DNA of 58,794 bases from Clostridia bacterium (GCA_017522125.1 JAFXAC010000053.1:1-58794), one strand, 5' to 3'; numbered from the stretch's first letter, positions 42,349 to 52,399 are shown. Notes: a model not told the origin generated them from the letters alone. Translations and numbers: made by a program.

Positions 42349-43014
42349 TTACCAAATGAATGGCAGTAGTCTGTATTTTACCTTTTTCGTGTATTCCGCA
42401 TAGCCCTCAAGTCCTTCCGAAAGCACCTTTTCCTCGTTAAGTATGCGAATAACGGTTGCGGGAACGTAAAGCGAAAACGGGATAAGTCCCCAAAGCGAGC
42501 CGAGTATCAGAGGAAGCGGCAAAAACATAAAAAGCGTTGCAAGATACATCGGGTGGCGCACAATGCCGTAAAGTCCCGTGCTTACGACCTTTTGTCCCTC
42601 TTGCACCTCGACGGTGCGCGAGAGGTAGGCGTTTTCGCGCATTACCTCGGCATACGCCGCGTATCCGATCAGAAACAGCACGGACGCGGTAACGGTAAGC
42701 CACACGGGCACGCGCGACCACGAAAAGCGAAAATCAAGCGCGGAAAGGATAAAGCCCACGGGGAATATCAAGCCCGACAGCGCGATAACGCCGCGCTGTG
42801 CCTTTTCTTTTTCCTTGTTGTTAAGTCTTTTTTTCAAAAGCTCGGGCGCTTTGATGAAAAGCACTATCCCCATAACGCACATCGGGATAAACAAAAGCGC
42901 AAGAAAGAGCCACGCGCCGCCGTAAAGGAGCGTTCCCGCGGGCAAGAACAAAAGCACGCCCACAAGGATGAGACCGAGAATAAATTTCACAAGTGCGTCA
43001 AATAACAGCTTCAT
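42349..43014 (-). CDS. ICMT/phospholipid methyltransferase family membrane protein
   Basis: GLYGIVRHPMYL motif and a polytopic N-terminus. Confidence 0.65.
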   Translation of the reverse strand: MKLLFDALVKFILGLILVGVLLFLPAGTLLYGGAWLFLALLFIPMCVMGIVLFIKAPELLKKRLNNKEKEKAQRGVIALSGLIFPVGFILSALDFRFSWSRVPVWLTVTASVLFLIGYAAYAEVMRENAYLSRTVEVQEGQKVVSTGLYGIVRHPMYLATLFMFLPLPLILGSLWGLIPFSLYVPATVIRILNEEKVLSEGLEGYAEYTKKVKYRLLPFIW

Positions 43015-43102
43015 CGAGCGCTCCTTTCGAGTTTTATATACATATTATAATAGTTGCGTGCGGTTTTTTCAATAGGCTACGGCGAAATGTTGTCAAAAAA
43101 TT

Positions 43103-43129
43103 AAAAAGCAGGGGTTTCCCTGCTTTTTA
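43103..43129. terminator. Bidirectional terminator at the left border of the AT-rich island
   Basis: AGCAGGG-gttt-CCCTGCT (43107-43124) flanked by A5 and T5. Confidence 0.7.
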
Positions 43130-43160
43130 TATAGCGTAACAAATCGAAAAATCGAACTAT

Positions 43161-44486
43161 TCAATTCCCATTTGCTTCCCACAAGTTTTTCTGCACCCAG
43201 CAGACGTTGCATTTATTTCGCGGGCAGGTACAGCACTGCCATATCTCCGATTTGCCGCCAAGCGTGGCAAGCGGAGTTTTTATGATCGGCGCAAGTATGC
43301 CGAGGGCGGCTTCGTCCAATAAAGCATTCAACTCGCCCTCTGTCATCAGCTGCCAATCGTAAACGTCCTTTTGGTTGGTATTAAGGCGTGTGTAGTAGCA
43401 GCAAGGAAATTGACCGTCCTTGTGATAGACGCGAACGTTAAAATAATATTCGTCCGAGTACTGAGATTTTTGCGCCTCGAACTCCAAGCAAAAATCCCCC
43501 TCCAGACCCATCGTCCATTTAGCTCCCTTTTTCTTAAATCCAAGCTGCTTTAGCCTTTCGGCGATCTTTTGCAAAAACTGCTTTTGCCTCTCTTTTTTTA
43601 AAGCCAAGATATCGTCCCTTGATTTATATAAATACGTATCATACACGTTTTTTATTTGATCGGCAACGGCGTTTTTGTCCGATTCATTTTTTATAACGGA
43701 GTAAAACCGCAATTTTATATTGAAATCGTCCTCGCCGTAGAGTCTAAAATGCTCTCCTTCCGCGACAGTTGTAAAGCCATACGTTACGCCAATATGCTCA
43801 CCGTAGTCCTTCAAATTCACCGCAAAGGCAACCTTGTCAAGCGTAAAGCGGTAAAAGCTGAACTGCCTAAAGCTCCACTCGGCTTCTTTGAAATTTGATT
43901 TAAGGAGCTCCTCTCTCAAAGAAAGCATCGTATCCGTATAACGCAAAAATTCTGCTTCTTTGTCGGTGAAGTCCTTGAAAAATTGCTCGATTCTTAAAAG
44001 CTCCCCTTCTTCAAGAAGCTGATAGGTCATAAGGTCTGTCAGCTCGATAGCAAAGCCGTCGACTTTTTCGGACTCTCTCGCAAAAGCGAGCTTATTATCA
44101 AAGGCTCTTTTGATAACGGCACACTCGGGAGTCCGATCGATTACTTTATAGTATCCACTGCCACTACGCTTTACCCAATCGCCAGCCTTTACCGTTGCCA
44201 TTTCCTTTTCATTCCGACACAGTGCCATCAGCCTGTCAAAAACTCGTCTGTCGGCATCCGTCAAGCAAGCGGGCTCAAGATGGAGCATTGCGTGATAGGC
44301 ATCGTGCAATCTATCGTTAAATAAATATTCAAGCCCCTCGGATAAGCGGAGCTTTTTATCGTAATCATTGCCGAAAATCGTGTCTATATCTTCGCCAAAA
44401 GCATTTTTATAATTCTTCCACCTTGCCTGAAATTCGTCGCTAAAGAACCATCTCTCTTTTTGTGAGCTTGTCTGTGTCTTATCCAT
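43161..44486 (-). CDS. Hypothetical 441-aa protein (C-terminal part DUF4304-like)
   Basis: Long clean ORF in AT-rich DNA. C-terminal KKKGAKW...F.LEF...Q pattern and a terminal Cys cluster. The family call is tentative. Confidence 0.4.
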   Translation of the reverse strand: MDKTQTSSQKERWFFSDEFQARWKNYKNAFGEDIDTIFGNDYDKKLRLSEGLEYLFNDRLHDAYHAMLHLEPACLTDADRRVFDRLMALCRNEKEMATVKAGDWVKRSGSGYYKVIDRTPECAVIKRAFDNKLAFARESEKVDGFAIELTDLMTYQLLEEGELLRIEQFFKDFTDKEAEFLRYTDTMLSLREELLKSNFKEAEWSFRQFSFYRFTLDKVAFAVNLKDYGEHIGVTYGFTTVAEGEHFRLYGEDDFNIKLRFYSVIKNESDKNAVADQIKNVYDTYLYKSRDDILALKKERQKQFLQKIAERLKQLGFKKKGAKWTMGLEGDFCLEFEAQKSQYSDEYYFNVRVYHKDGQFPCCYYTRLNTNQKDVYDWQLMTEGELNALLDEAALGILAPIIKTPLATLGGKSEIWQCCTCPRNKCNVCWVQKNLWEANGN

Positions 44487-44540
44487 AAATCATGTGCCTT
44501 TCTTCTGTTGCAAAGCAAGCGTTTGTGTTGAAAGTGCTGC

Positions 44541-45221
44541 TCAAACGTAAATGATGACTTTATTTGTTTTTTTCTTGTGCAGATACAATTTTAGCGGCAA
44601 GCCCGATCTTGCGCTTAATGCCTTTTTCGGACACGCTTCAACGCACCTAAGACACCTTATGCACCTGCCGTTTGTTTTACCCGATTTTATCGCCCCCAAG
44701 GGACAGATCTCCGAGCAAAGCCCACAGGCGATGCATTTTTCGCTTTTCCGTATTTTAAGCCCCAGCCGCCCTCTCAGCCTCGGAAGGATATCAGCCAAGG
44801 GATTTTTATATAGCTTGGGAAGGCTTACGGGAGAAGGGCTTTGTATCTTCTCAACGAGGGGCTTCAATTTATCGAAATCGCAAAAAGCCCCGTCGTTATC
44901 TATATAGGCGTGCTTCGTGGGGATATACGCGCCCGCAACAACGTTTTTTTGATAGCCTTTTTGTATCTCATACAGCACGTTCCCACAGCACATTTTTCCG
45001 TAGGTGGCAACGACCGTCAGATTGTCAACGGATACGCTCTTCAAAAAATCCTTTACGGCATCGGGAATATTTTGGCAGTGGACGGGAAACACGAGAACGA
45101 GATTTTGATAATCCGTATGTGCCGCCTCAATGCTTAAAAGAGGATAGTCCAAGCACTCGGCAAGGTACGCCGCGACCGCCCTGCTCTGCCCCGTATTTGA
45201 ATAAAAAACGGTTGCGTTCAT
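44541..45221 (-). CDS. EFR1-type flavodoxin-like plus 2x[4Fe-4S] ferredoxin
   Basis: N-terminal flavodoxin-like FYSNTGQSR. C-terminal CIACGLCSEICP and CIRCLRCVEACP. ATGA overlap with the upstream PP-loop gene. Confidence 0.65.
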   Translation of the reverse strand: MNATVFYSNTGQSRAVAAYLAECLDYPLLSIEAAHTDYQNLVLVFPVHCQNIPDAVKDFLKSVSVDNLTVVATYGKMCCGNVLYEIQKGYQKNVVAGAYIPTKHAYIDNDGAFCDFDKLKPLVEKIQSPSPVSLPKLYKNPLADILPRLRGRLGLKIRKSEKCIACGLCSEICPLGAIKSGKTNGRCIRCLRCVEACPKKALSARSGLPLKLYLHKKKTNKVIIYV

Positions 45222-46606
45222 TGTTCCAAGTACTCCCGCATTATCGCGCATTCGGGTATTTCCTCAAGCGAAAAGCCGAGCGAGCTCTTAAGCTCCGATA
45301 GCGCTTCCTCGCGGGAGAGATTGTTACTTCGCCCCGCTATCGCGATCTCAAGTGCGCTGAACGGTATCATCGTGCTTTTCATCTCGTAAAATCTTACGAA
45401 TTGCGAATGCTCCTTGCATTTTTCGATTTTACAGCTCGTATGTAATCCCTTATCGGCTTCCTCGGGGGCAACCCAGCCGCATTCACGAATGATGATATCC
45501 TTTATCTTTCTCCACTCGTAAGCACCGCCGCTTATTTCATCAAAATCGACCTGTACGAACGCGGGAATATTGCCCGTGCGCGAGGACGCGCGTATCGCTC
45601 TTTTTAACGGAGTCAGAATATTGGGGGCTTCTCTTATGGCTTCACAGACGTTTTGCACGAGGGGATTTCTGTATCCCGCTAAATTTTTCAATCTGCTGTC
45701 GCCGTATGCAAGCTGCTTCATCGTGGCGAGGGTGTGGAATTGACCCTTTTTCAGCGGTGGGCGAAGCGTTAGCACCCTGCCGACGTTCAAAAGGAAATTA
45801 AGCACCTTGTTTTGCGCAAACGTATAAGCAAATTTGGGCGCCATGTGATTGAAATACAAGCCGAGCATCTGTGCGGGCTCATTTCCCGCAACGAAATACG
45901 GGACCTTGTTTGCAACAAGCTCCGAGTAAAACAAAACGTACGCGAGGGAAGGACAGGCGCAGGTGTTTCCGTTTAAGGAATAGAGCTTTTTATATATCCT
46001 TTTCAGATCGTCGCTTGAAACTCTGCGGCTGATAAACTCCACCGAATCAAGCGTCGCCTTGGCGTTTTCCACGCTCCTTCTCGCGCAGTCGGACATATAG
46101 GGGATCTCCCAAGTGAGCGCCAGAACGCGGAGCTTTAATTTTTTTGAGAGATAGTACAGTAAATACGTGGAATCCTTGCCGCCCGTGTAAAACACGGCAA
46201 CGTCAAAGCGCGATCTTTTTGACCTTGGGAATGTATTTACTATCGGAACGATGCTTTTCAGCTCTTTCGTCTTGTCCGCGGATTGGCAAATGGGGCATTT
46301 CCCCTCTGCGTCGAACTCTATACCCGGGATCATAAAATCGTTTGCAACGCAGGTCTTGCAAAATCTTGCCTCGTCAAAGCCCTTGGGAATCGCTATTTTA
46401 TCCTCACTTTTAACGATCTGCACGCCTATGAGATTTTTTAGTGCATAGGCTTCCTTCGGCGTCAGCTCGCACGGCAGCCTTTCGACGATCGCTCTTTGCT
46501 TTTTGGTAAGCCGAACGGTATTTTTAAACGTGTCGGGCTGATTTCGCAAGCCGTAATATCTCAAAATACTGCCTTCAAGCCTCCATCTGCTTTGGATATC
46601 GTACAT
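45218..46606 (-). CDS. PP-loop ATP pyrophosphatase, N-acetyl-sugar amidotransferase (WbuX)-like
   Basis: Zn-ribbon CKTC...FDAEGKCPIC followed by PP-loop FYTGGKDST. Confidence 0.55.
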   Translation of the reverse strand: MYDIQSRWRLEGSILRYYGLRNQPDTFKNTVRLTKKQRAIVERLPCELTPKEAYALKNLIGVQIVKSEDKIAIPKGFDEARFCKTCVANDFMIPGIEFDAEGKCPICQSADKTKELKSIVPIVNTFPRSKRSRFDVAVFYTGGKDSTYLLYYLSKKLKLRVLALTWEIPYMSDCARRSVENAKATLDSVEFISRRVSSDDLKRIYKKLYSLNGNTCACPSLAYVLFYSELVANKVPYFVAGNEPAQMLGLYFNHMAPKFAYTFAQNKVLNFLLNVGRVLTLRPPLKKGQFHTLATMKQLAYGDSRLKNLAGYRNPLVQNVCEAIREAPNILTPLKRAIRASSRTGNIPAFVQVDFDEISGGAYEWRKIKDIIIRECGWVAPEEADKGLHTSCKIEKCKEHSQFVRFYEMKSTMIPFSALEIAIAGRSNNLSREEALSELKSSLGFSLEEIPECAIMREYLEQ

Positions 46607-46672
46607 AGCAGTTCCTTTCTTCGACAGTTATACTAAACTGCGTAAAATGGGGTTTCGATTAGTCGAAGGGAT

Positions 46673-46951
46673 CTATTTCCCATTTTTAAAGTATCCTTTA
46701 CCCCCAAACGTATCGTACCACAAGGTGAATATCGCGCCGCAGCTTTTGCATTTGATCCTATACCATAGTCCATCCTGCGGCCACTGCTTTACGGTTTTTT
46801 CGGGAACGTTCCCGCCGACGTATTCATAATTTCCATCGGATAATAAGCGCTTGAGCTTTTGTAAAATATCAAAAAATTCGTCGGTGCTTTTGATATGCCT
46901 TACAGCTTCAAGCTTTTGGCATTCATTGCACAGCCTTTTGAAAAAAATCAC
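46673..46951 (-). CDS. 92-aa hypothetical protein with a CxxC...CxxC zinc-ribbon pattern
   Basis: GTG start preceded by GGAGAA. CNEC and CKSC pairs. Confidence 0.5.
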   Translation of the reverse strand: MIFFKRLCNECQKLEAVRHIKSTDEFFDILQKLKRLLSDGNYEYVGGNVPEKTVKQWPQDGLWYRIKCKSCGAIFTLWYDTFGGKGYFKNGK

Positions 46952-47050
46952 AAGTTTTCTCCTTCAGATATAAATGACGCTCTCCTCTCGGCGCAAGAGC
47001 GTAAAAGGTTTAAAAATCGGTTAAAAACGGGTTGGGAAAGCCAAAAGTCA

Positions 47051-47416
47051 TCAAATACCCAAGAAAAAGAAACCATTATATTCGCGTATTGCTTTTTCGA
47101 GCCACTCAGCAAAAACTTCAAATCCTTTGGGTCTGTCATTAACAATTTGTTCCCTAATTGCTAACGTCTGCTCTTTTGTGTAGTAATTGACGCCGTAAGG
47201 GTCAAGCTCTTGCGTTTCCTTGGAAAGAATCGGATTTCGTAAATAATCGCCGTAATTTTCAAAGAAAGCCTTGCCGTTATCAACGCGAACAAGCAAAGAA
47301 TCCTTTTCCTTGAACGAGTATCCCTTTTTTAATATCTTTTTTATATCCCACTCTTTTTTGCAATACTGAAATTCAAAATATGCACTTCCTTGCTTTTCGG
47401 AACACGGTATAAACAT
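47051..47416 (-). CDS. 121-aa hypothetical protein
   Basis: ATG preceded by AGGAGG. No recognisable motif. Confidence 0.5.
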   Translation of the reverse strand: MFIPCSEKQGSAYFEFQYCKKEWDIKKILKKGYSFKEKDSLLVRVDNGKAFFENYGDYLRNPILSKETQELDPYGVNYYTKEQTLAIREQIVNDRPKGFEVFAEWLEKAIREYNGFFFLGI

Positions 47417-47512
47417 AATTACCTCCTACTGATATAAAAGACGCTCCCCTCTCGGCGCAAGTGCGTAAACGGTGTTTCTTGCACCAAAATAAGCGGCGAA
47501 GTACCAAAGCCC

Positions 47513-48274
47513 TCAATGTGCATCATAAGAGAGATTGCACTCCTTGCAAACATCTCGTTCGTGATCCTCGGAAAAGCTTACTCGCTCCATTATCCTTCCG
47601 CATTTAGGGCAGATATGTATCTGCTGATCGCCCACGTTCTCCGCTTTTATGCTTTTTCCGTAATCACATTCCAAATGGTAGTACACAGGATAGCCAAGCT
47701 TTTTGCTCATATATTCCGCAATTTCGATTTCCTGCTTGTTTAATGCAGAATCAAGCTTTACACGCTGATTTCCCGTATAGCGATCGCAAAGGCAGTTCAT
47801 CCAAAGCATATCCATTGATGAGTAATTCTCTTGCCAATTTTGAACCAAGCAATAATCCTCTTGGCTCTCTGCGGGAAAAGGAAGCTCGTAATACGCAATG
47901 GGCTTTCCGCAATCACAGCAAGTAAATACGCTATCTTGGTCGCGGGAATACGTTTGCATTTCAACTGCGCTTCTCTTTTTGCAACCACAATACTGCCCGC
48001 TTTCAACGTTTTCACCCATGGGGGTAAGGATGCAGTCGTATATTTCCTTAATTCTTTTTCGATCCCGTTTTACGTATACCCCATCATATTTTTCATCAAA
48101 GGAATCGGATTTTGGCAACGTTACGTACATTGCGTAATTCTCGTTTTTCGTTAGCGTATAGCTCTTCAAGATCTGCCCGTTTCGCTCAAGCGAGCAGAGA
48201 AAAGACCAGATCAGGTCTTCTGCGTCCTCTTGTGCTATGCTTTGCTTGGCAAACAACTCTATTTTACAAAACAT
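47513..48274 (-). CDS. 253-aa multi-zinc-ribbon protein (DUF2310-like)
   Basis: CCDCG, CPKCG and CKEC ribbons plus an N-terminal NGQIL segment. The family call is tentative. Confidence 0.45.
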   Translation of the reverse strand: MFCKIELFAKQSIAQEDAEDLIWSFLCSLERNGQILKSYTLTKNENYAMYVTLPKSDSFDEKYDGVYVKRDRKRIKEIYDCILTPMGENVESGQYCGCKKRSAVEMQTYSRDQDSVFTCCDCGKPIAYYELPFPAESQEDYCLVQNWQENYSSMDMLWMNCLCDRYTGNQRVKLDSALNKQEIEIAEYMSKKLGYPVYYHLECDYGKSIKAENVGDQQIHICPKCGRIMERVSFSEDHERDVCKECNLSYDAH

Positions 48275-48329
48275 ACTTCCTTCTCCTTTCGGGGCGTTAT
48301 ACTAAACTGATGTAAAATAAACTTTTTAC

Positions 48330-48680
48330 TTATGCGTTTTCCTTCGCGGTGGTGATGGAGGAGATGAGTCTGCGCCTGATCGAACCGCATTTGTTTTTTA
48401 AATCTTTATAGTTCGATTCGGTTATTTTCCCTTTTCTGAAAATCAGTTCAAGCCAATATTCAGTTTCCGAGCACTCCTTTAAAGAGATTTCAAGCTTATT
48501 TATAAAATCTGCCTTACTCTGTGCATATTTTGCTTCGTGAATATTAGCACCTATAGAGGATGAAGAACGGACAATTTGATTGGCGTAAATGGAGCAACCT
48601 TTGATTTCGTCGCATAGGTCTGATATTTGGATAGCAAATTCTATAGCGTCCTCTCGTAGTTGGTTCTTATTGTCTATCAT
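48330..48680 (-). CDS. Four-helix-bundle protein (23S rRNA intervening-sequence protein/Avd family), copy 1
   Basis: 116 aa with family-typical QIVRSSSSIGANI.EA and E..YWLEL motifs. Confidence 0.85.
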   Translation of the reverse strand: MIDNKNQLREDAIEFAIQISDLCDEIKGCSIYANQIVRSSSSIGANIHEAKYAQSKADFINKLEISLKECSETEYWLELIFRKGKITESNYKDLKNKCGSIRRRLISSITTAKENA

Positions 48681-48702
48681 TTTTTACTAATCCTTTATTC
48701 TG

Positions 48703-49015
48703 TCGATATGTTGCTTCGCAACTCGATATCAATACCTTCGGTATGTCGATATGTTGCTTCGCAACTCGATATGTTTTCGCTACGCTCAAACTCGATATAT
48801 GCTCACTTTGTTCGCATTCGATATGTTGCGCTTTGCGCAACGAGAGGCGCTTTGCGCCTTGGCGCTTTTCCCCAATCTCGTTTTGCCGCAAGGCAAAACA
48901 TATCGAGTCCCCGCAGGGGATATATCGAGCCGCCGCAGGCGGCATATCGACCGACGCGTCAGCGGCGCATATCGACATCGAGTCGTCGTGTCAGCGACAC
49001 GACAGACTCGACGTG
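48703..49015. repeat. Heptamer/hairpin array, copy 1 (6x TCGATAT, centre, 4x ATATCGA)
   Basis: TCGATAT at 48703, 48723, 48746, 48766, 48792 and 48818. ATATCGA at 48900, 48922, 48944 and 48969. Intervening palindromes include GTTGC-ttc-GCAAC and GTTTTGCC-gcaa-GGCAAAAC. Confidence 0.9.
48959..49015 (-). pseudogene. Orphan duplicate of the last 18 codons plus stop of rlmD (HVESVVSLTRRLDVDMRR*)
   Basis: 57/57 nt identical to 50335-50391. No upstream coding continuation: homology stops at 49015/49016. Confidence 0.85.
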
Positions 49016-49080
49016 GGGCAAGAGTACAAAAGGTATATTTTCATGCCAAAAACGGGGGTTGTAAAGCCAAAAGGTATATT

Positions 49081-49746
49081 TTAATTGTACTCTTCTACAT
49101 CACCAAGTAATTTAATAATTCCATTGTCCACAAGTATAGCACCTTTCATAATAGCAGTTGCATATACCGTTTTCTTGCGTTCTTCAAGAACCTTTTGAAT
49201 TGCTGCCTTTTGAGCGTCTTTCCCCTCATAATGCACTTCCAAATAAAAGTCATTCAAATACGGTAATCCCTCATAATATTTGAACTCTGGATAATCATCG
49301 TCGGGGGAAAGATGATATTCAGCAAGTTGAATAACGGCTCCCGCACTATAGCCCATAACAATCCCCTTATGCTTCATCAAAACATCTTTTAGATCAAATT
49401 CCTTGATGCGATCCATCATCCTATCTGGCAAGCCGCCGAGAAAATAGAGGATATCCGCATTTTCAATCTTTTCCTTTGCAGATTCCTTTGTATCCGTAAA
49501 ATAGTTGATAAACGAAACATTCTCCTCGGAGATTCCGTATGCAGTAAACCCACTAACAATACCTTCGTAAAACCTACCATTGCTTTTGCTATATAAGCAA
49601 TTCCAATCCGCAAGAGATTTAGCTTTACTGTCACGAAAAGAGAACGCAATTACCACTACTCTGTGAGTAGGTTGCATATATTTTTTTAATTCATCATAGA
49701 GCCATGGAGCATCTATATCGTAACCCTCAAGTAAAATATTAATCAT
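49081..49746 (-). CDS. Peptidase S51 (dipeptidase E-like, class I glutamine amidotransferase-like) protein
   Basis: ILYFLGG, GYSAGA nucleophile-elbow-like motif and a downstream His. ATGA overlap with four-helix-bundle copy 2. Confidence 0.6.
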   Translation of the reverse strand: MINILLEGYDIDAPWLYDELKKYMQPTHRVVVIAFSFRDSKAKSLADWNCLYSKSNGRFYEGIVSGFTAYGISEENVSFINYFTDTKESAKEKIENADILYFLGGLPDRMMDRIKEFDLKDVLMKHKGIVMGYSAGAVIQLAEYHLSPDDDYPEFKYYEGLPYLNDFYLEVHYEGKDAQKAAIQKVLEERKKTVYATAIMKGAILVDNGIIKLLGDVEEYN

Positions 49747-50099
49747 TGATTTTGATTCTCCTTTGCGGTGGTGATGGAAGCGATAAGTCTGCGCCTAATT
49801 GAGCCGCATTTGTTTCTTAGCTCTTTGTACGTGACCTTGCTCATTTTTCCTTTTCTGAAAATCAATTCAAGCCAATATTCAGTTTCCGAGCACTCCTTTA
49901 AAGAGATTTCAAGCTTATTTATAAAATCTGCCTTGCTCTGTGCATATTTTGCTTCGTGAATGTTTGCTCCGATAGATGATGAAGAACGGACAATTTGATT
50001 GTCGTAAACGGAGCAACCTTTGATTTCGTCACATAGGTCTGATATTTGAATTGCAAATTCAATCGCGTCCTCTCGGAGTTGGTTCTTATTGTCTATCAT
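49743..50099 (-). CDS. Four-helix-bundle protein (23S rRNA IVS protein/Avd family), copy 2
   Basis: 118 aa, about 90% identical to copy 1 with many synonymous differences. Confidence 0.85.
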   Translation of the reverse strand: MIDNKNQLREDAIEFAIQISDLCDEIKGCSVYDNQIVRSSSSIGANIHEAKYAQSKADFINKLEISLKECSETEYWLELIFRKGKMSKVTYKELRNKCGSIRRRLIASITTAKENQNQ

Positions 50100-50121
50100 T
50101 TTCTACTAATCCTTTATTTTG

Positions 50122-50391
50122 TCGATATGTTGCTTCGCAACTCGATATGTTTTCGCTGCGCTCAAACTCGATATATGCTCACTTTGTTCGCATTCGATAT
50201 GTTGCGCTTTGCGCAACGAGAGGCGCTTTGCGCCTTGGCGCTTTTCCCAAATCTCGTTTTGCCGCAAGGCAAAACATATCGAGTCCCCGCAGGGGATATA
50301 TCGAGCCGCCGCAGGCGGCATATCGAGCGACGCGTCAGCGGCGCATATCGACATCGAGTCGTCGTGTCAGCGACACGACAGACTCGACGTG
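50122..50391. repeat. Heptamer/hairpin array, copy 2 (4x TCGATAT, centre, 4x ATATCGA), overlapping the rlmD 3' end
   Basis: TCGATAT at 50122, 50142, 50168 and 50194. ATATCGA at 50276, 50298, 50320 and 50345. The rlmD stop TGA (50335-50337) lies in a hairpin loop. Confidence 0.9.
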
Positions 50392-51726
50392 TCCCGTTCT
50401 CGGAAACAGATCAACGGGAAGGACGGTGCCGATGCTCCAGCCGAGTTGGTAAAGGTGAGCAAGATCGCGTGCGAGCGTTGCGGGGTTGCAGGAGATATAC
50501 ACTATCTTCTTTACGCCTGCCCTATCGAGCGTATCAAGCAGCTCGGCGGCACAGCCCTTGCGCGGCGGGTCAAGCACGACCACGTCGGGAAGCTCACCCG
50601 CAACGCCGAGAAGCTCGGACGCGCCAAGCGCCGAGTCGGCGCACAAAAAGCGCGCGTTCTCAATGCCCGCGCGTGCGGCGTTAGCCACGGCGCACTCAAC
50701 CGCCTCGGGCACTATCTCAACGCCCGTAAGCCGTCCTACGCGCCCCGCCATAGAAAGTCCTACGCTTCCGATGCCGCAATAAAGGTCAAGAAGATGCTCG
50801 TCGCCGCGAAGTCCCGCCATATCAGCGGCGGTGCGGCAAAGAAGCTCGGCGGCATCGTGATTTACCTGATAAAACGCCGCGGGCGCGACGTCAAGCTCAA
50901 CGCCGCAAAAAACGTCCCTTATCGACGCCTTACCCGCCACGGTGATATATTCATTGCCAAGTATTACGTTGGAGTTTTTCGTATTTACGTTAAGTACCAC
51001 GCCCACGATGCGCGAAAACGTGCGCATCAGCGCCTCGGCAAGCTCGTCGGCGTGCGGCAAGCTCCTGCCCGCTATGACGATGCAAACGAGTATCTCGCCG
51101 TCCTCGCCCGCGCCCGTGCGCAGATAGAGGTGGCGCAAAAGTCCCTTGCCGCTTTCCTCGTCGTATACGGAAATCCCCTTTTTATATGCGAAATCGCAAA
51201 CGAATTTCGCTATCTTGCCGAATATCTCGGGCTGTAAGGGGCAGGATTCGTCGCCCGTAACGCGATGTGTTCCCGAGGCGTAAAAGCCCGCGCGAATGCC
51301 GCCCTCGTATGCCGCAAAGCGATATTGCGCCTTATTGCGATAGCCCCAGACCTCACCCGTGTGCGCGGTTTCGAGCACCTCAACGTGCGAAAGCCCCGCC
51401 TTATCAAGTTCGGAGCGCACGTTCTGCCGTTTCAGCTCAAGCTCGTGAGAGTATTTTATAAATCTGTACGCACAGCCGCCACAGCTTGCGGGGGCGGTGC
51501 ATCTGTCACTGCTCTCGCGCAACGGCGAGGGGGTGACGACCTTCATAAGCCTTCCGACGAGATAACCCTTGGTTATCTTTATTATCTTCACCTCTGCCCT
51601 CTCGCCGCTGACTGCGCCGTGGGTGAACACGACCTTGCCGTCCTCCGTCCTGCCTACTCCGTAGCCAAGATTGCTGACGGCGGTAACGTCGATTGTAACG
51701 ACGTCGTTTTTCTTTATATCAGACAT
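50335..51726 (-). CDS. rlmD: 23S rRNA (uracil-C5)-methyltransferase, RlmD/RumA family
   Basis: TRAM domain, Fe-S Cys cluster (CTAPASCGGC), SAM fold (DLYCGIG), nucleophile region YISCNP and terminal FPRTGHVE motif. Start taken at MSDIKK (51726). Confidence 0.85.
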   Translation of the reverse strand: MSDIKKNDVVTIDVTAVSNLGYGVGRTEDGKVVFTHGAVSGERAEVKIIKITKGYLVGRLMKVVTPSPLRESSDRCTAPASCGGCAYRFIKYSHELELKRQNVRSELDKAGLSHVEVLETAHTGEVWGYRNKAQYRFAAYEGGIRAGFYASGTHRVTGDESCPLQPEIFGKIAKFVCDFAYKKGISVYDEESGKGLLRHLYLRTGAGEDGEILVCIVIAGRSLPHADELAEALMRTFSRIVGVVLNVNTKNSNVILGNEYITVAGKASIRDVFCGVELDVAPAAFYQVNHDAAELLCRTAADMAGLRGDEHLLDLYCGIGSVGLSMAGRVGRLTGVEIVPEAVECAVANAARAGIENARFLCADSALGASELLGVAGELPDVVVLDPPRKGCAAELLDTLDRAGVKKIVYISCNPATLARDLAHLYQLGWSIGTVLPVDLFPRTGHVESVVSLTRRLDVDMRR

Positions 51727-52399
51727 AGTATTCCTCGCCGTTGTCAAGGCACAGGCAGGCAAGTCTGCCGCCGCGTGCCGCACCGCAGTCAATGGCTATA
51801 AAGCCCTCGCCGCGATATATATCGCCGTTGCACGAAAAATTCTCGGTGGTGGGCGCGTGTCCGACTATCATAGTAGCCTCGCCTACTGCGCACACGTCGG
51901 CACCGTCGGCAGAGAAATCTGCCCAATCGTAATCCTCAAGGTCCTTGTCAGCCTCATAGCCCTTTATTCCCGAATGAACGAGAACGTAGTCCCTGCCGCC
52001 GACGTGCAGAGTTTCGTAGGGTGCCATATCCGCAAGGTAGTCGATAACGCCCTCGCGCATATCCGCGTCAAGCTCGCGGAAGCCGTCAAGCGTGCGCTGT
52101 CCGCCCATTGCTATCCATTTTTGCATTTTTGCGATGAAGTCCGCGTCGGGTGCTTTTCCGTCCTTGAGCATTTCCGAAAAGCCCTCAAGCATCTCGGCGG
52201 CAAGCCTATCGTGCTCGCCCGCGACGGGCCAGACGTTTTCGCGCATACTGAGGTCGCACACAAGCTCAATAGGCTCGTCCCCTATATCAACGATATCGCC
52301 AAGCACGAACATAACGTCGTTCTTGGAAAAATTTATCTGCTCAAGCAGTGCGGTAAAATCGGCGTAGCAGCCGTGAATATTTGATACAACGTAGGTCAT
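51719..52399 (-). CDS. Metallophosphoesterase (PPP-family Ser/Thr phosphatase/ApaH-like)
   Basis: SNIHG, GDIVDIG and VHSG motifs. ATG 52399 preceded by GGAGGAG. Confidence 0.75.
   Translation of the reverse strand: MTYVVSNIHGCYADFTALLEQINFSKNDVMFVLGDIVDIGDEPIELVCDLSMRENVWPVAGEHDRLAAEMLEGFSEMLKDGKAPDADFIAKMQKWIAMGGQRTLDGFRELDADMREGVIDYLADMAPYETLHVGGRDYVLVHSGIKGYEADKDLEDYDWADFSADGADVCAVGEATMIVGHAPTTENFSCNGDIYRGEGFIAIDCGAARGGRLACLCLDNGEEYYV

Follow-up and report, generated by a model that had tools for sequence, protein, structure and literature searches.

Two structured non-coding arrays stacked behind the rRNA methyltransferase gene rlmD of a Clostridia bacterium are about 99% identical, whereas the four-helix-bundle (4HB) genes that they precede are 89% identical. 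We attribute this contrast—with a probability of roughly 70%—to the joint action of purifying selection on the arrays, short-patch recombination between them, and a mosaic composition of the genes. The locus lies in a stretch of 58,794 nt (GCA_017522125.1 JAFXAC010000053.1:1-58794), hereafter the window, whose genome (G000) is 92% complete. The original prediction, made from the bare sequence, had noticed the contrast and read it as nucleotide-level selection or ongoing gene conversion on the array; its observation is confirmed here, and its interpretation is partly supported.

All features of the locus are encoded on the minus strand (Table 1). Two cassettes are stacked head-to-tail behind rlmD, each consisting of a tail hairpin, an array, a leader, a 4HB gene and cargo. 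Array copy 2 overlaps the end of rlmD by 18 codons (HVESVVSLTRRLDVDMRR, followed by the stop) and is the short form with four left and four right units (4+4), while array copy 1 is the long form (4+6). Both 4HB genes belong to PF05635 with Pfam scores of 82.1 and 79.3 bits against a gathering score of 33.8, and 4HB1 is the ortholog of the single copy in the sister species G023, as judged by its position and its 3′ end. A DUF2310 gene comes after 4HB1 on the same strand. The G+C content is 38–49% in a block of about 43000–50100, against 55–57% in rlmD and the genes beyond the block. Pfam reveals no recombinase or transposase among all island genes and their flanks. As a separate observation, an open reading frame of 121 aa at 47051–47416 (no Pfam match; region of about 47010–47418) is missing from the conspecific contig L061; the two BLAST pieces around it share about 55 nt, so that this indel may be bordered by imperfect direct repeats.

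Table 1 Features of the two stacked cassettes, listed from rlmD onward in window coordinates
Feature	Position	Strand	Basis or remark
rlmD (23S rRNA uracil-5 methyltransferase)	50335–51792	-	Pfam TRAM + tRNA_U5-meth_tr
Array copy 2	50122–50391	-	terminal hairpin in rlmD tail, 4 x TCGATAT + hairpin, centre, 4 x ATATCGA + hairpin
4HB2 leader, 22 nt	50100–50121	-	RBS AAAGGA; too short for a promoter
4HB2, PF05635 four-helix-bundle gene	49743–50099	-	Pfam E = 3e-22
Peptidase_S51-like cargo gene (S51)	49081–49746	-	Pfam; start overlaps 4HB2 stop (ATGA)
Cassette junction, 65 nt	49016–49080	-	motif AAAATATACCTTTTG x2: 49027–49041 and 49068–49082
Array copy 1	48703–49015	-	orphan rlmD-tail hairpin 48976–49015, 4 x TCGATAT units, centre, 6 x ATATCGA units
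Minimal recombination (gene-conversion) tract	48784–48861	-	copy 1 = copy 2 (50160–50237)
Two-unit indel, 43 nt	48723–48765 or any equivalent register	-	flanked by perfect 29-nt direct repeats
4HB1 leader, 22 nt	48681–48702	-	alignment of the two copies
4HB1, PF05635 four-helix-bundle gene	48330–48680	-	Pfam E = 4e-23

Aligned with MAFFT and by exact offsets, the rlmD tail and the array of the two copies differ by 3 substitutions in 292 aligned nucleotides (48782/50158, 48873/50249 and 48951/50327), to which the leader adds 2 (48684/50103 and 48700/50119). The 4HB genes, on the contrary, differ at 36 of 339 nt. Six of these differences—every one synonymous—fall within the first 83 nt, and Nei-Gojobori counting yields a pS of 0.347 (24.3/70.2), a dS of 0.47 and a dN of 0.045. 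Setting array plus leader (5/314) against synonymous sites (24/70) gives a Fisher P of 2.6e-15. The proteins are about 90–91% identical, with changes clustering at residues 86–95 and the C-terminus. Hence, near-identical arrays, far more diverged genes and clustered amino-acid changes are found as they had been described by hand alignment. The label "rlmD tail" given to the first part of the repeat holds for a 57-nt tail of that gene, and has to be widened, as this stretch is also the terminal hairpin carried by every cassette of this kind. In a 26-kb contig from another sample (L168), which keeps both cassettes in the same order and is 99.95% identical over 5979 nt (3 mismatches), the two arrays differ from each other by 1 substitution only; two of the three array-copy differences are private to the present assembly.

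Comparison across species demonstrates purifying selection on the array. For calibration, array p-distances were set against the pS and dS of the adjacent gene in a 12-genome panel with 55 genome pairs. In 55/55 pairs the array is the slower partner (p-distance 0.05–0.20 against a gene pS of 0.35–0.87), and the ratio of array divergence to gene dS is about 0.13–0.2 (0.13–0.18 in the less saturated pairs). Between G000 and the sister species G023 the array distance is 0.063 (6.3%), at a core-gene pS of 0.21–0.28. The array diverges at only this fraction of the synonymous rate because its heptamers are essentially invariant and its stems compensated. In 34 arrays from different species, 277 heptamer slots are exact and 4 degenerate, and hairpin slots R1–R3 hold 11–18 distinct sequences each, whose outer four pairs use 3–4 pair types and are 100% Watson-Crick or G-U. 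Of 116 distinct spacers, 65% are closed by a stem of 4 bp or more that directly adjoins the heptamers, against 2% of shuffles. Even the tail hairpin is compensated between G000 and G023 (GAGTC/GACTC vs GAATC/GATTC), although an amino acid of the RlmD tail changes with it. The proposed nucleotide-level selection is thus borne out: a 300-nt non-coding element evolves 5–8 times slower than the silent sites of its neighbouring gene, across at least 27 genera. The frozen 7-nt words and compensated stems are strong evidence that such orphan "Gut-1-like" arrays are functional. Part of the slow divergence could stem from frequent horizontal exchange of arrays instead of selection, as exemplified by 109 nt that are 99% identical to G007, a genome whose rlmD DNA is only 85% identical.

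Might selection alone have kept copies as old as the genes 99% alike, without any exchange? The 5–8-fold reduction recurs in every genome pair and has a visible cause in the invariant heptamers and compensated stems. However, at a dS of 0.47 this degree of constraint predicts 18–24 differences between the copies, while 3 are seen (Poisson P = 7e-8 to 2e-5) and 1 in L168. Also, a conspecific array 1 with identical flanks has 19 clustered differences, so the tract in question tolerates such change. We therefore regard constraint as the sole cause as very unlikely.

The conspecific array just mentioned is that of metagenome contig L061, whose 4HB1 gene, leader and long-form array end are identical to copy 1. 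Its 16 substitutions and 3 indels relative to copy 1 all fall in 48782–48861, with zero differences in the 764 nt to the right and the 89 nt to the left of the tract. Throughout 48784–48861, copy 1 equals copy 2; position 48782 is left out of the minimal tract because copy 1 differs from copy 2 there too. The tract sequence of array 2 is the same in G000 and five conspecific contigs (L058, L060, L168, L169 and L170), and array copy 2 as a whole differs by 0 or 1 base in L058, L060, L168 and L170. The copies within G000 are hence more alike than copy 1 and its conspecific allele, and this likeness is confined to a discrete tract between identical flanks, as gene conversion leaves it. Had the patch not occurred, about 19 sites would separate the arrays, in line with the constraint prediction. 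Thus, the suggested conversion is seen as a replaced patch of 78 nt and acts jointly with selection. That the high identity stops at the start codon is not supported; the patch that can be demonstrated ends within the array.

We consider short-patch recombination in the array pair to be demonstrated as an event, whereas its direction is one that we infer. The replacement affected one lineage and spanned at least 78 nt and at most about 230 nt. Array 1 was most likely converted by array 2, across the separating 1.4 kb, in the lineage of G000, L168 and L110 (78–90 nt), which would have erased about 16 substitutions and 3 indels from array 1. With distances to the sister species of 9/269 for the L061 array and 15/268 for copy 1, the outgroup G023 favours L061 as ancestral. 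G007, on the other side, belongs to the same genus and has a remnant array of the G000 type beside a 4HB1-like remnant, so that the change may instead have occurred in the L061 lineage. As all types agree over the left 150 nt of the array, the tract has no defined border on that side, and the event could also have been a crossover linked to cassette insertion instead of a classical conversion. A second case is found in genome L071, where two stacked arrays share private compensated variants (atAcgaac...gtgagTat) while the genes downstream are unrelated—one array precedes a 4HB gene, the other an unrelated gene. Stacked array copies thus exchange short patches.

A different history would combine young arrays with old genes. 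Tail and array would have been duplicated very recently, e.g., when cassette 2 was inserted through a crossover inside the array, the gene bodies would come from different cassette lineages, and L061 would represent another insertion or a later import; a conversion event of its own would then be superfluous. Several observations fit such a history: the 3′ part of 4HB2 is imported together with S51 (98% identical to G277), strains differ in stack composition (in L059, S51 is followed by a different cassette), the identical tract lacks a defined left border, and the G007 remnant links G000-type units to a 4HB1-like gene. Nevertheless, it needs two independent insertions or an extra import among strains that are otherwise 99–99.9% identical. 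L061 moreover equals copy 1 on both sides of the tract (long-form end, leader and whole gene), which marks the footprint of a patch and not a different insertion, and the tract of L061 is the one nearer to the sister species. We hold this history to be improbable.

Repeats of this kind are also prone to assembly errors, and a MAG assembler might have collapsed or cross-threaded two diverged repeats. Arrays do break many contigs, in G000 as well as among metagenome contigs, and contig L110 (1465 nt) is a circular-looking chimera of both genes. Yet the independent L168 assembly recovers the two cassettes in the same order and with their arrays, at 3 mismatches in 5979 nt, four more contigs confirm the order of rlmD, short array and 4HB2, and the tract lies 19–96 nt from the unique 43-nt boundary, within k-mer reach. 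An artefact is therefore hardly credible.

Two contigs of one metagenome assembly deserve a description of their own. L110 (ena:ERZ28653803 scaffold_211760) runs from the junction through tail′, array 1, a chimeric 4HB gene and S51 to the junction again. Its 4HB gene follows copy 1 in the 5′ part and copy 2 in the 3′ part, with the switch inside a 69-nt stretch common to both genes; the contig ends overlap by 46 nt, and the resulting period of 1419 nt equals the repeat spacing. Three origins come into question for L110: excision as a circle, a third tandem unit, or a loop made in assembly. L169 (ena:ERZ28653803 scaffold_11309) agrees with the window from rlmD across array 2 to ~140 nt into 4HB2, where it switches to a GDSL-lipase frame called as one gene of 353 aa; the contig is either a real recombinant or a chimera.

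The third component of the contrast resides in the genes. The reading that synonymous sites have had time to diverge presupposes clock-like divergence since one duplication, and this premise does not stand: the differences between 4HB1 and 4HB2 amount to 8 in nt 1–100, 6 in nt 101–170, 1 in nt 171–250 and 21 in nt 251–339, that is, 21 of 36 fall into an 89-nt 3′ segment. The nearest relatives of 4HB2 change along with these segments—G023 for nt 1–100 (3 differences), 4HB1 for nt 171–250 (1 difference), and G277, a member of another genus, for the last 89 nt (3 differences). The identity to G277 runs on into S51, with 3 of 151 nt different over the 3′ end of 4HB2 and the start of S51 (98%), and the 3′ end of 4HB2 was imported along with S51. 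4HB1, in turn, has states common to G412 in its 5′ part. Judged by these segment-wise relationships, the 4HB genes are demonstrably patchworks of alleles that circulate among cassettes of many genera. As mosaics, they do not date a duplication, and their higher divergence is largely imported, not accumulated.

The clustered amino-acid changes coincide with a hypervariable patch at residues 86–90 (48411–48425 in 4HB1 and 49830–49844 in 4HB2, minus strand), where the entropy reaches up to 3.2 bits (at residue 89) among 29 proteins of many genera that are otherwise about 95% conserved. This patch may be a specificity determinant. The S51 protein is 100% identical on 16 contigs from many samples (the window gene and loci including L106–L115). 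The 4HB alleles in front of it number at least four and the array words three (TCGATAT, ATGAATTG and GTGAAGT); in one case it directly follows an array, without a 4HB gene in between. Its common upstream border lies in the last ~45 nt of the 4HB gene (ending in ASITTAKENQNQ and the stop), and this conserved stretch seems to serve as a recombination joint. Genes behind arrays are shuffled between genera, and sequence divergence is therefore unusable for dating cassettes.

Besides substitutions, the arrays differ in unit number. The 43-nt indel adds to copy 1 one CATACCGAAGGTATTG unit and a second GTTGCGAAGCAAC unit. Perfect 29-nt direct repeats (TGTCGATATGTTGCTTCGCAACTCGATAT) at 48701–48729 and 48744–48772 bound this step, so that slippage or unequal exchange between them would gain or lose exactly two units. 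Such a process between identical blocks of heptamer, unit and heptamer is suggested by the anatomy of the array, and accords with the length change in whole-unit steps that had been postulated. A survey of 45 arrays sharing the first unit—the first-unit pattern search yielded 38 genome loci and 6 metagenome loci—substantiates that unit number varies: 22 arrays are 4+4, 5 are 4+6, 2 are 4+5, and 7 show left words only, some of which end at contig ends. A search of JGI metagenome contigs with the leader pattern gave zero matches. The indel is as clean as described, comprising two units with the hairpin ATACC-ttc-GGTAT; the long form itself is not new to copy 1, as it had been thought to be, since the form with the CATACCGAAGGTATTG unit also occurs in the sister species G023, in G412, L061 and L168, and compensated long-form variants (cacacc...ggtgtt) occur in G269 and L077. 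The 43-nt step is hence an old polymorphism. As a further observation on array ends, G014 (L149) bears a hybrid array after rlmD with four GCGATAT, four ATATCGC and two ATATCAC units, the last of which are identical to the end of the GTGATAT-type array of G007. Such a hybrid hints at recombination between arrays with different words, and at the possibility that surplus units on the right remain from an older array.

For a wider survey, an array was defined by a 6–7-nt word present three times or more, with a short hairpin behind every copy, and a subsequent series of three or more reverse-complement words with hairpins. G000 contains 29 arrays of this design, and three shuffled genomes contain none. 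The words TCGATAT/ATATCGA are used by 14 of them; the others use GTGAAAT, AATGATG, (A/G)TGATAT or ATGAATTG. All six PF05635 genes of G000 have an upstream array, three of them directly after a tRNA gene, and a crude detector finds an array upstream of about 12 of 29 PF05635 genes. The 4HB clade co-varies with the heptamer word in a manner not separable from simple linkage. The module of tail, array and 4HB gene is present in 37 of 401 genomes sampled from the family, and in 27 of 97 genera. In array-less congeners rlmD ends with HVESVVCLTR(K) and the stop, which indicates that the terminal hairpin has a left arm of native coding sequence and a right arm contributed by the insert. Internal cassettes carry their own copy of the tail hairpin (array copy 1, L041, L043, L059 and L071), and cassette borders coincide with the foot of this hairpin. 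The content of the stack is variable: the sister species G023 has a single cassette, and the conspecific L059 has a different cassette behind an identical 4HB2-S51 pair. In G007 (L027 1–2300), rlmD is followed by a GTGATAT/ATATCAC array, a different 4HB gene, a small membrane-protein-like gene and a TCGATAT array, the last of which is truncated in its centre beside a ~100-nt 4HB1-like remnant.

The closest catalogued relative of the arrays is the Gut-1 RNA motif (Rfam RF01706), a probable stand-alone ncRNA from human gut metagenomes with no function given (Weinberg et al. 2010, PMC2864571). A search of window positions 47000–52000 against Rfam returned nothing at E <= 1, and the window arrays stay below the Gut-1 gathering threshold of 50 bits; the Gut-1 model does match other G000 arrays with the GTGAAAT word, at 70.5, 54.2 and 52.2 bits. 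Both consist of short hairpins that vary in sequence and keep their pairing between invariant heptamers, and both occur in uncultured gut bacteria. The Gut-1 model, however, spans 77 nt with three hairpins and GUGAAAU linkers, whereas the window array uses TCGATAT, is convergent—four words, a centre and 4–6 reverse-complement words—bears a terminal hairpin, and sits between the stop codon of a host gene and a cassette gene. The window array is thus a word-variant and fuller form of the catalogued Gut-1 design. Our literature search found no paper that links PF05635 genes to such arrays.

The stack as a whole resembles an integron. Promoter-less cassettes of one orientation stand behind a fixed chromosomal point, the content of the stack varies among strains, and each cassette is bounded by a folded element, an imperfect palindrome with 7-nt core words. 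On the contrary, Pfam finds no IntI-type recombinase in or beside the stack (island genes and flanks), the words differ from the attC core GTTRRRY, each boundary element has 8–10 words and not 4, and the host here is a Clostridia bacterium. The homologue of rlmD, rumA, is known to be targeted by integrative and conjugative elements (ICEs), whose serine integrases insert them into its 3′ part (PMC4701971). These elements share with the present cassettes the target gene end and the replacement of C-terminal codons of the methyltransferase, and differ from them in being large and conjugative, with their own integrase and direct repeats of 2–21 bp, compared with cassettes of 1–2 kb without a recombinase gene.

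Concerted evolution, as it is described for rRNA operons and for BOX, REP and BIME mosaics, likewise makes copies within a genome closer than conspecific alleles and leaves discrete tracts, and in BOX/REP/BIME-type repeats the module number also varies through repeats within the element. Here, conversion affects a structured non-coding element that leads mobile cassettes, and BOX, REP and BIME bear no sequence relation to the window array. A REP/REPIN-RAYT system was considered and rejected, as no Y1 (IS200/IS605-like) transposase is found, PF01797 being without a match in the 92%-complete G000. The intervening sequences of 23S rRNA in Leptospira and Coxiella encode an S23p/PF05635 protein. 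Like the window element, they combine a PF05635 gene and an extended stem in or next to a conserved transcribed RNA-related gene; unlike them, the window element has a multi-hairpin heptamer architecture, and its host gene is rlmD, with no rRNA match in the region that would place it in helix 25 or 45.

What the array might do can be approached from its expression and fold. A consensus scan for a promoter or terminator of the array gave nothing above shuffles. Together with the distance of only 22 nt to the start codon, this makes it probable that the cassette genes are read through from rlmD and that the array is transcribed with rlmD, inside the read-through transcript. In the tail hairpin, G-U pairs favour the sense strand (13 vs 1, P = 0.0008), and in the units they do not do so clearly (P = 0.08). 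In the minimum-free-energy fold of the 4+4 array, L1 pairs with R4, L2 with R3, L3 with R2 and L4 with R1. As a single strand, the array would probably form a rod, held together by pairing of left with right heptamers and bearing the hairpins as side branches. Wherever the left word differs between arrays, the right word differs with it (TCGATAT/ATATCGA, GTGATAT/ATATCAC, AATGATG/CATCATT, GTGAAAT/ATTTCAC, ATGAATTG/CAATTCAT and GTGAAGT/ACTTCAC), as would be expected either from pairing of the words or from a protein that recognises the word in both directions. The modelled rod could mark the boundary of a cassette for processing and/or recombination; since cassette borders lie at the foot of the tail hairpin, a role of the array as a recombination site would be equally open. 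A coding reading of the array was discarded, as plus- and minus-strand open reading frames shift with the 43-nt indel and the variable unit lengths, and the public collection holds no such gene call.

A more far-reaching scheme, which we regard as possible if doubtful, would give gut Clostridia an unrecognised, integron-like system of cassette capture, with the arrays as its recombination sites. Cassettes would enter at the hairpin on the last rlmD codons or just after tRNA genes, the arrays would fold single-stranded with left words pairing right words, the PF05635 protein would be an array-binding accessory factor, the exchange between arrays would be a by-product, and the catalytic enzyme would be encoded elsewhere. 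A strain-variable cassette stack at the rlmD 3′ end with no recognisable recombinase provides a system in which to seek a new mechanism of cassette capture or RNA processing. It may also prove useful for the long-unknown role of PF05635 proteins outside diversity-generating retroelements.

Three minor observations concern the surroundings of arrays. At the tRNA-linked PF05635 loci of G000 (C96:6845–6991, C49:12417–12586 and C31:802–970), a terminator-like conserved hairpin with the loop TTGTCTACCGACAA precedes an array with its own word, AATGATG or GTGAAAT, behind which the gene stands; two of these loci, C96 and C49, have a near-consensus promoter (TTGACA-17-TATAAT) between the array and the PF05635 gene. 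A motif of the form AAAATATACCTTTTGG...CCCCCGTTTTTGGCAYRAAAATATACCTTTTG precedes the tail hairpin of internal cassettes in the window, L059, L071 and L106–L115, and the junction motif may be a 3′ boundary signal of cassettes. A second cassette leader without an array (...TTTTGAGCAAAACTCGAAAGTTCATTTTACAGCAGTTTAGTATAAC-ATATCGA-AAGGAG) is found after rlmD or 4HB genes in G011/L154, G019/L157, G020/L158, L071 and L108, and a degenerate form of it stands before DUF2310 at 48275–48329 of the window.
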